Origin: an uncultured Chlamydiae bacterium
Lineage (GTDB): Bacteria > Chlamydiota > Chlamydiia > Chlamydiales > Parachlamydiaceae
Reading direction: 5' to 3'
NCBI GenBank assembly: GCA_963754655.1
Contig: CAVWGN010000001.1
Coordinates: forward strand, 864,001-928,000
Length of the DNA: 64,000 nucleotides
Made by a program: the position numbers and the translations under genes. A model generated the notes under the pieces. It did not search any database. It was given only the letters and a program-made list of their open reading frames with translations, and was not told where the DNA came from. Each line of letters starts with the position of its first letter. Position 1 is the first letter of the stretch. Of the stretch, positions 24,059 through 26,160 are shown in pieces.

Positions 24059-24237
24059 TGAGCGTAGGCTATGCGACGTATTCAGTCGCCCGCCGCTTCG
24101 CTCTGGGCTCTAGGTAAGGGGGGATATATGGACTCACCGTTCGGTCGCCCTTCTTCTATATAACATTACATACGAGGCGTTAATCAAAATAGGCTGTTGC
24201 TAAAAATTAAAAAACATATTCTTTCTCTCTTATTTCT

Positions 24238-24402
24238 GAATGTCAAAAACAAGCAGTCTTCCAGCTATTTACTCTTCTATACGGGATAACCATTGCTATA
24301 TAGAATAGCGGTTTCACCAATGAACCTATCAAGACTGCTTACGACCAAACTCCGGGGCGGGCATATAAGCACCAATGCGCAACCGGCCTCTTAACGACAT
24401 TC
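24238..24402 (-). ncRNA. Candidate bridge/seekRNA in the non-coding end downstream of the IS110 transposase
   Basis: Closing stem 24238-24244/24396-24402; 10-bp stem 24251-24260/24331-24340; target match CTCCGGG (24350-24356); donor matches TCTTCTATA (24273-24281) and GTTTC (24311-24315). Strand is assumed from the transposase. Confidence 0.6.
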
Positions 24403-24445
24403 TTATTTTGATAATCTTTTAGTTACACAATTTATGCATTAATAG

Positions 24446-25875
24446 TTATGCATTAATAGGAATAAGTATAAAATTCATTTCCTTAGCCTGTCTTTTCAAA
24501 GCTTTTAATCTTCTAGCTTCATAGGTCCTTTCATAATAATCTTCACCAAGCTCAAAATATGCTTTTCCCTCTTTTAACATGGTATATAAAATGACTGCCA
24601 TCTTATGTGCTGTTGCAGTAATTGCTTGTGCTCCTCCAAGGCGGCTTTTCATTCGCCTTAAAAAAGATCCAAGATAACATTTAGCATTCCATAAACCATT
24701 CGCCGCCATTCTTAAAAGATCAGAAGTTCTATTAACACAAGGCTTTGTAGCTCCGCTTATGCTTTTGCCTCCAGAGATTTTATTTCCAGGACAAACACCC
24801 AGCCAAGATGCGAAATGTTTTGCGCTTTTCCAGGCATCCACATTTCCTCCGATTTCTGCTAAAATTTTAAGGGCTGTTGCTTGATCAATTCCTGGAATTG
24901 TTGTGATATCAACACCACAAACACCTCTCATTAAAGGAATTGTCTCATCAGAAAAATGTTTTTTCTTGTGCTTTTCTTTTGTTTTTTCCCAATATTTTTT
25001 GTTGAAAAAGAAAATGTGGGCTCTTCCTTATCAGCTTGCTCTACTTCACTATTCTTTTGCGTGTATTCCACCAACTCTTTCAAAGCTATTTCAATTTCCT
25101 TAGCACATGTCTGGATCAATGTCGTATAGTAATTGTATAAGTCTCTTGCTTGTTTTAAGACGAAGAGATGCTCTTCTCTATAATTACCCCTAAGAGACTC
25201 AGCAATTTCTTCTGCACTCTTTTTACAATTAGGATGAACAAGTTTCGCGAAAACTTTTAAATCTCGCTCTCCATCAATAATTGCGTTGATAATGCTCATG
25301 CCTGTTAGGCCTGTAATATCGCGAACATGCGTTGCAAGTTGAATATTCATTTCATGCAAAGCCTTTTGCATATGCAACACATGGGGAGAACGATGTTCAA
25401 TAAGAGAAGAATGCTGACGAGTAAGCGCTCTTAGTTTTAAGCAATGATCTTTTGGACGAAAAGATTTTGTGAGCAGCCCAAATGTATGCAATTTTTGAAT
25501 CCATTGACAATCTAAAACATCTGTTTTGCGTCCAGGCACGTTTTTAACCGACTTTGCATTTACTAAGTAGACCTCTATTCCACTAGATTCAATAATTTCA
25601 TAAACAGGTATCCAATAGCTTCCTGTAGATTCCATTGCTACCGTTTCGATTTTGTGTTTCTTAAGCCAATTACACATCTCTAGCAAACCACTCGTTGTAG
25701 AAGAAAATTCTTTTACAATTTCACTGCCTCGATTTTTAGGAATTGCAACAAAATGAGATCTAGATCCTATATCAATGCCTGCGCTATTAGGATTCATAAC
25801 TCCAATGTCAGCTTCAACCTCTTTAGCTAATTTACTTCTTGAAGAAGAGTTTGTTTTGTGCTTAAATCTTTTCAT
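24446..25875 (-). pseudogene. IS110-family DEDD recombinase split by a 1-nt frameshift
   Basis: AGIDIGS, VAMESTGSYW, RKTDVLDCQW (DEDD) in 24931..25875; GVDITTIPGI and KISGG in 24446..24931; one extra base in the A5 run at 24952-24956 would fuse them. Confidence 0.85.
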
Positions 25876-26160
25876 GTGATGACCCTCTCTTTGTTGATTT
25901 TTTGTAGAAAAAACATTTTGCGGGTTCATCACCTCTTTCTTCAAGCTTAAAATAGTTATTTTATGGACCTAGCGCTTCAAGCGCTTGGAAACTCCGGGCT
26001 CGTTCACGGTGGGCTAGAAACAGTCGTCCTACGGACTCTAGCAGCAATGTAAAAGCCATTGAATGTTAGGTAAGGTGTCTGGTAATGCTGCTAGAATGCT
26101 AGTCAAGGCGTTTTGATAATGCCGCTAGAGTCCGCAGGACGACTGTTTCTAGCCCACCGT

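Follow-up and report, generated by a model that had tools for sequence, protein, structure and literature searches.

RNA-guided targeting of palindromic repeats by IS110-family elements is already established. As set out in the accounts of IS621 and the IS110 group (PMC11208160, PMC11208158), a recombinase combining a DEDD with a Tnp domain acts with a single RNA whose target and donor loops are alike in build, the guides include the 2-nt core, and insertion into repetitive palindromes brings no further duplication; the IS621 RNA is ordered stem, LTG, stem-loop, RTG, and its right guides work as 7-mers when extended. In the account given of the seekRNA elements ISEc11, ISKpn4 and ISPa11 (PMC11187229), the recombinase gene is followed by the RNA, insertion is into specific repeats, and the IS1111 guide identical to the top strand is found 3' of the strand that pairs with the top strand. 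Recombinase lengths are reported as 330–350 aa for IS1111 and 315–330 aa for the IS621/Piv branch, and exceptions to the upstream position of the RNA in the IS110 group are noted in the literature. A further IS110-family element, ISPpu9 of Pseudomonas putida, is described as inserted in repetitive extragenic palindromes and as having a small RNA gene after its transposase gene (PMC12288879).

Here we evaluate an insertion sequence in a 64,000-nucleotide stretch of DNA (the window) from an uncultured Chlamydiae bacterium. With IS621 and the IS110 group it shares the two recombinase domains, the single RNA with its two similarly built loops, the core-containing guides and the insertion in repetitive palindromes without further duplication; with ISEc11, ISKpn4 and ISPa11 it shares the downstream RNA, the order of the two strand matches and the choice of specific repeats; and with ISPpu9 it shares family, type of target and downstream RNA, a likeness by description rather than by sequence, ISPpu9 having seven copies as reported versus one here. 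We interpret the locus as an IS110-group insertion sequence that very probably used bridge-RNA-guided recombination at a CT/AG core to insert itself into one arm of a palindromic repeat specific to the host. This would make it a clear natural example of the mechanism described in 2024, not a new mechanism, and one that changes nothing fundamental while extending bridge-RNA elements to environmental chlamydiae. The features, by window position, are as follows.

24100–24149, plus strand: host repeat arm, left half as split by the element, with GGTCGCC as its last bases; at 68 genomic places it runs on without a break into CT-CCGGG
24150–25993, minus strand: whole IS110-family element, 1844 bp with the junction CTs counted in; the match to the repeat runs to 24151 on the left and resumes at 25992
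24150–24152, no strand: three extra bases (CTT on the plus strand, AAG when read with the recombinase) that separate the target flank from the canonical donor core
24153–24154, no strand: RNA-proximal core CT, which reads AG in recombinase orientation, placed by the family rule
24155–24237, minus strand: right-end tail between RNA and element end, ending ...GTTATATAGA in recombinase orientation
24238–24402, minus strand: predicted bridge-RNA gene, about 165 nt, with closing stem, target-binding module, donor-binding module and a U-run after the 10-bp stem
24238–24244 with 24396–24402, minus strand: closing stem, from the MFE fold and the alignment to the nearest relative
24244–24250, minus strand: U-run after the 10-bp stem
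24251–24340, minus strand: donor-binding module, closed by the perfect 10-bp stem (24331–24340 with 24251–24260)
24274–24281, minus strand: donor guide UAUAGAAG (TATAGAAG), identical to TATAGA of the element end followed by the AG core
24343–24388, minus strand: target-binding module, with stem GGCCG/UGGUC (24384–24388 with 24343–24347) and inner hairpin UGGUGC..GCCCG (24358–24374)
24350–24357, minus strand: target guide CCCCGGAG, its last 7 nt repeating CCCGG of the flank and the AG core found at the recombinase-start junction
24375–24383, minus strand: target loop, 5' strand GUUGCGCAU; tentatively a second target guide, able to pair at 6/7 positions (core G plus GGCGAC) across the site
24446–25878, minus strand: recombinase gene in two frames, a DEDD RuvC-like domain followed by a Tnp domain with the ..PGNKISGG.. 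serine motif
24922–25006, minus strand: zone of the single reading-frame change; a 476-aa relative follows frame +2 up to 25006 and frame +1 from 24922
25879–25991, minus strand: left end, 113 bp, starting TTTCCAAGCGCTTGAAGCGC in recombinase orientation
25992–25993, no strand: core CT on the recombinase-start side, placed by the uninterrupted sites
25994–26050, plus strand: right half of the interrupted host repeat arm, starting CCGGGCTCG, from comparison with uninterrupted repeat copies
42519–42532, plus strand: empty target site, exact 14-mer match
42833–42846, minus strand: empty target site, again an exact 14-mer match, carried by the palindromic repeat's mirror arm

The element in its host repeat

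All coordinates of the initial annotation were found again in the sequence, including the two empty sites that it had placed in the window. GGTCGCC lies at 24143–24149, with CT following at 24150–24151 and again at 25992–25993, while the exact 14-mer GGTCGCC-CT-CCGGG (GGTCGCCCTCCGGG) occurs in 68 genome copies, every one in the same repeat context (..CCACCGTTC[site]CTCGGTCACGGTGG..). In these uninterrupted sites the two flanks are joined by one CT, that is, by two bases common to both, and comparing the occupied site with the 68 empty ones reveals insertion at a 2-nt core without other target duplication, plus three extra bases at one junction. The ends of the element are a non-coding right end of 291–294 bp that contains the RNA and a left end of 113 bp. 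It is a single-copy element, as a genome search with 24100–26050 returned 132 matches, 1 of them full-length and 131 short, the latter being flank repeats almost throughout, along with a second, distant IS110 element at C1:2760531. The 7-mer CCCGGAG is present at 143 genomic sites, 68 of which fall in the host repeat.

The repeat itself appears specific to this host: its 26-nt core, allowing up to 2 mismatches, has 77 copies in this genome and none in 24 relatives of 57–99% completeness, of which 3 share its genus, 12 its family and 9 its order. Around the empty sites, at 42445–42925, the target repeat forms an arm of a nested, composite palindrome about 480 bp long, in which the insertion target lies within the 23-nt loop of an 8-bp hairpin (CCCACCGT/ACGGTGGG), and an Rfam search of this intact copy (42300–43050) returned sub-threshold hairpin look-alikes only, with no RF01687. 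We infer that such a non-coding palindrome may act as a safe harbour for the element. Adjoining the element-bearing repeat, at 22278–23540 on the minus strand, is a 420-aa protein consisting mostly of leucine-rich repeats (..NLP.NL..L.L..C..).

At the RNA-proximal junction, the earlier description of only CT as duplicated is formally correct; by the family rule (an 8-nt guide ending in the core), the donor core is the CT at 24153–24154 and the CTT at 24150–24152 is extra. The rule predicts a right junction of TATAGA-AG-GGCGACC where TATAGA-AG-AAG-GGCGACC is observed, and the donor guide matches the element end 3 nt inside the observed junction. Calling the CTT extra draws on this rule and on one low-depth metagenome contig, a 175-nt aquatic sequence (run X1) that spans 24136–24313 with one substitution and with the three letters missing at 24150, and that may be erroneous because it is a single contig of depth 3.4. 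Since CTT is repeated there, either triplet could equally be named as the extra one. None of the genome's repeat copies contains the three letters, and the simplest reading would be a tandem duplication of AAG following insertion. The circle junction previously proposed, ...TATAGAAGA-AG-TTTCC..., needs revision accordingly, the family rule leading one to expect ...TATAGA-AG-TTTCC... instead.

The RNA gene and its guides

The closed structure of about 165 nt that had been drawn at 24238–24402, downstream of the transposase, is borne out by a covariance model match and by paired changes in relatives, and its two sub-domains do each carry CACCAATG, beginning at 24315 and 24370. Both modules have the same build: a stem, a strand of 9–11 nt ending CAU, a hairpin UGGUG...CCCG, an 8-nt guide and a stem, and all helices are present in the MFE fold of the 165 nt. 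By blastn, comparison of the element with its relatives matched coding parts only, leaving the non-coding end unmatched, and Rfam over 23500–26500 (E up to 10) gave nothing relevant. MAFFT with RNAalifold on 13 phylum-spanning RNAs yielded almost no structure, and we therefore set the structure by hand on 9 sequences. The resulting covariance model (R1), built from 9 relatives' RNAs with three hand-set helices, leaves out the outer closing stem and the 10-bp stem, its helix 3 being the inner hairpin of the donor module. R1 found 67 matches in 91 sources; its sole match in the window is at 24268–24395 on the minus strand (106.5 bits, E 1.2e-27), and in the whole genome it hits 2 places, the window site and the second IS110 element. 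Common to the relatives is the scaffold AGRCCG...CAYTGGTGC...GCCCG-[8 nt]-YNTGGTC...TCAYTGGTG...CCCCG-[8 nt].

Evaluating pairing on the model-fitted alignment of 36 distinct rows, a measure biased towards the model's structure by that fitting, we found 94.1% of cells paired and changes on both sides in 13 of the 19 modelled pairs, values reached by 0 of 500 shuffles and far above those of slid registers. The two stems outside the model are retained in the nearest relative, the closing stem via a double change (GAATGTC/GACATTC to GAATGTA/TACATTC) and the 10-bp stem with a C-G pair turned into T-A. Judged by this comparison of relatives (R1 matches, pair covariation and guide tracking), and not by folding energy, 24238–24402 is a real bridge-RNA gene. 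An outward-facing promoter-like site, TTGACA-17-AAGAAT, lies at 24246–24218; such sites are not above shuffles in number (7 found versus 5.0 expected), and a terminator scan called none.

In this RNA, the target guide CCCGGAG (24350–24356; CTCCGGG on the plus strand) equals flank plus core, and TCTTCTATA, at 24273–24281, contains the donor guide. Set against the junctions, the target guide CCCCGGAG matches ..GAGCCCGGAG|TTTCC.. and the donor guide TATAGAAG matches ..GTTATATAGAAG. Thus the sub-domain to which the initial annotation assigned core plus target flank proves to be a true target guide slot, matching in relatives their own flanks, and the one within the 10-bp stem, where it saw a copy of the element end, a true donor guide slot (24274–24281), matching in relatives their own ends. 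The guide covariation that it proposed looking for is seen as well, both slots changing together with each relative's flanks and ends. In the nearest relative, the same scaffold carries the different guides TCCCATAG and TATAGGAG, at junctions reading ..CAGCCCATAG|TTCC.. and ..TTATATAGGAG|CTTTG..; here TATAGGAG equals the relative's own end TATAGG plus AG, as confirmed by two empty sites in its genome that read CTCAGCCCAT-AG-CTTTGTCC. Seen across four chlamydial relatives, one RNA scaffold with guides for each host's own repeat makes a clean example from nature of guide reprogramming between related hosts.

To place these matches on a broader footing, we surveyed the guides of 22 representative RNAs, one per distinct guide set and scoring about 36 bits or more, with 13 lower-scoring distinct rows left out as their first loop was incompletely aligned. 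The 8-nt stretches that follow the two hairpins share their final dinucleotide in all members; it is AG in most and AT in Bacteroidota. An exact copy of the 7-nt target guide stands at the recombinase-start boundary, as expected, in 14 of these RNAs, and one of the donor guide's last 7 nt at the other boundary in 16, in a set that is not fully independent (four Verrucomicrobiota kin, four Acidobacteriota kin) and in which several misses are loci cut by contig ends. The chance expectation of a given 7-mer in a 100-nt stretch is about 0.006. Boundaries were fixed independently of the guides, by copy comparison in 6 multi-copy families and by empty sites for the window and its nearest relative.

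Signals for further guides are slighter. The opposite-strand 5-nt match GTTTC (24311–24315) that had been read as a guide to the other element end sits within the stem of the inner hairpin, where GAAGC takes its place in the nearest relative, whose own end would call for GGAAC, so that the match in the window is probably due to chance. A longest-complement search for second guides gave own values close to cross-family values. Held to a fixed register, a weak signal appeared, confined to the 5' strand of the target loop (own mean 3.67/7 versus 2.93/7 for mismatched families, n=12). On these sequence comparisons we take one guide per loop as secure and a second target guide as tentative. Across Verrucomicrobiota and Acidobacteriota members, the far target flank is wholly unconserved. 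Four copies in a Verrucomicrobiota MAG (L069–L072) share TAGCTAG on one side and nothing on the other, which suggests a target set by a single 7-nt guide. At L092–L113 (Acidobacteriota MAG) and L081–L085, copies are tandem or nested, and the conserved left flank ATCAAGTTTCATCTTAG is almost identical to the right end of the element itself, ATCAAGTTTCAGCTTAG, as would be seen if insertion were directed to look-alikes of that end.

A mode of action can be sketched by analogy with IS621 and with seekRNA elements: the guide behind the first hairpin, as a copy of target flank plus core (CCCGG+AG), would let the RNA-bound recombinase pair with one strand of the repeat, and the guide after the second, as a copy of the element's own end plus core (TATAGA+AG), with one strand of the circle's end-to-end junction. 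Strand exchange would then take place at the core.

The recombinase and competing explanations

Two overlapping open frames on the minus strand (24446–25944) bear both IS110 domains, and the call of an RNA-guided IS110 recombinase is upheld by Pfam PF01548 (E 6.7e-26) and PF02371 (E 2.1e-14) and by NCBIfam NF033542, 'IS110 family RNA-guided transposase', which the N-terminal half matches at 162.7 bits against a cut-off of 140. Aligned to the 476-aa relative, with 50% and 48% identity in the two frames, the recombinase has a length of about 475 aa, and its two-frame translation contains ..GIDIGS.., ..AMESTG.., ..DVLDCQ.. and ..PGNKISGG.., with the catalytic acid residues present. Relatives at 42–59% identity comprise 76 loci in many phyla; they occur in 6 of 40 related genomes and in none of 3 genomes of the same genus. 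The nearest, whose N-terminal half is 76% identical, belongs to an 'uncultured Chlamydiae' MAG, in agreement with the earlier view of a chlamydial element. A tree built on 29 N-terminal halves groups the window with this MAG (support 100/100) and the genome's second element with that of the chlamydial genome G006 (99/99); the RNA is downstream in both pairs and upstream in every other row with a located RNA.

Two other accounts of the downstream RNA have to be weighed. Were the structured end merely a 3' UTR or terminator with short matches arising by chance, one would expect what is indeed seen in its folding energy, unremarkable against shuffles for the 165 nt (z −0.91, with 37 of 200 shuffles folding equally well) as for the whole non-coding end (z −0.41), in its termination by a stem and then a U-run, and in guide matches just 7–9 nt in length. 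This is nonetheless exceedingly improbable given a scaffold kept across phyla with covarying pairs, guide slots that follow each relative's own flanks and ends, and a chance of about 6e-5 for a 7-nt match at a homology-fixed position. The other account, an IS1111-group element with a seekRNA, takes its appeal from an RNA that follows the recombinase gene and from the order of the top-strand-identical and top-strand-pairing strands, which is that given for the IS1111 seekRNA (PMC11187229); in these two respects the initial label of 'IS1111-like' stands. Very much against it, and leaving it quite unlikely, are the lack of a subterminal inverted repeat (as noted initially; exact inverted matches between the two 80-nt ends reach 6 nt at most, as far as 81% of shuffles do), the recombinase of about 475 aa versus 330–350 aa, and the upstream position of the homologous RNA in relatives from eight other phyla (44–54% identity) and in two chlamydial relatives. 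Of the defining IS1111-group traits, the long non-coding right end with an RNA is present and the 7–17 bp subterminal repeats and the 330–350 aa are absent, as is the IS110-group trait of a bridge RNA in the left end, upstream of the recombinase, the RNA here lying downstream at 24238–24402. Because of the missing subterminal repeats, the recombinase length and the upstream RNA of close relatives, by which it is set apart from IS1111 and from ISEc11, ISKpn4 and ISPa11 as described (PMC11187229), we conclude from sequence that this is an RNA-guided element of the IS110 group, not of IS1111 type.

Whether this copy still moves is a separate matter. Contigs from two soil runs (X3 and X4, 95–99% alike) have one more base behind 24981, where a short T-run adjoins the break, and because they keep the frame open, the break would be a lesion of this copy or an assembly error. 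A still active element, its frame break being a sequencing error or bypassed and its three extra bases tolerated, would fit with this, with catalytic motifs all retained across the two frames, and with near-identical pieces in 4 metagenome runs of 3 studies; we regard it as unlikely, however, with a single copy versus 68 free sites and a junction anomaly that persists. A programmed shift does not appear conserved either, since the nearest relative's copies are also split but at a different place. With its broken frame the recombinase copy is probably inactive, and the element, as a sole copy with one frame break and 3 extra bases at the donor core, is probably no longer mobile.

Sides of the RNA gene across the clade

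Relative to IS621 as described (PMC11208160, PMC11208158), likeness depends on the strand that is read. On the CT-core strand, the matched 7-nt guides 3' of each hairpin occupy the right-guide place of IS621, and the window guides may well be equivalent to its right guides. In recombinase orientation, the secure guides are 'left' guides 3' of the hairpins, in the order of the IS1111 seekRNA and the reverse of IS621. The window's RNA gene is in the right end whereas that of IS621 is in the left, its genes are oppositely oriented to the CT core (AG in recombinase orientation), its recombinase has about 475 aa versus 315–330 aa for the IS621/Piv branch, and the 5'-side 9-nt guide that is strong in IS621 is at best weakly matched.

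Taken together, the relatives may form a clade of long IS110-group recombinases with three perhaps undescribed features: a switch in RNA-gene side, retained GTT-N7-core ends, and a cassette inverted relative to the CT core compared with IS621, along with one-sided targeting. We offer this tentatively and lean slightly against it. The supplementary tables of PMC11208160 may already list the clade. In that reading, the RNA gene, upstream in most members, may have moved downstream in two chlamydial sub-lineages, and several members may specify one target side only, by a 7-nt guide, the other flank being unconserved. A clade with the RNA gene on either side of the recombinase gene may help explain the interconversion of IS110 and IS1111 layouts. 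Simple circular permutation via a moved donor site is not favoured as the route, the right-end layout and left-end start resembling those of upstream-type relatives.

The two other chlamydial loci with a downstream-type pairing offer observations of their own. The second IS110 element of this genome, outside the window (L038, G000:C1:2760531-2762066), has a 50% identical recombinase, likewise in two frames, and a bridge RNA downstream. Four exact 7-nt matches to its target guide TGTGAAAG lie upstream, 105 bp apart, suggesting a tandem repeat as its target. The G006 locus (L034, about 1150–1460) lies within a palindromic host repeat, with the target CACTTTATG-AG-CACTTAC and, about 200 bp upstream, an inverted, empty-looking copy.
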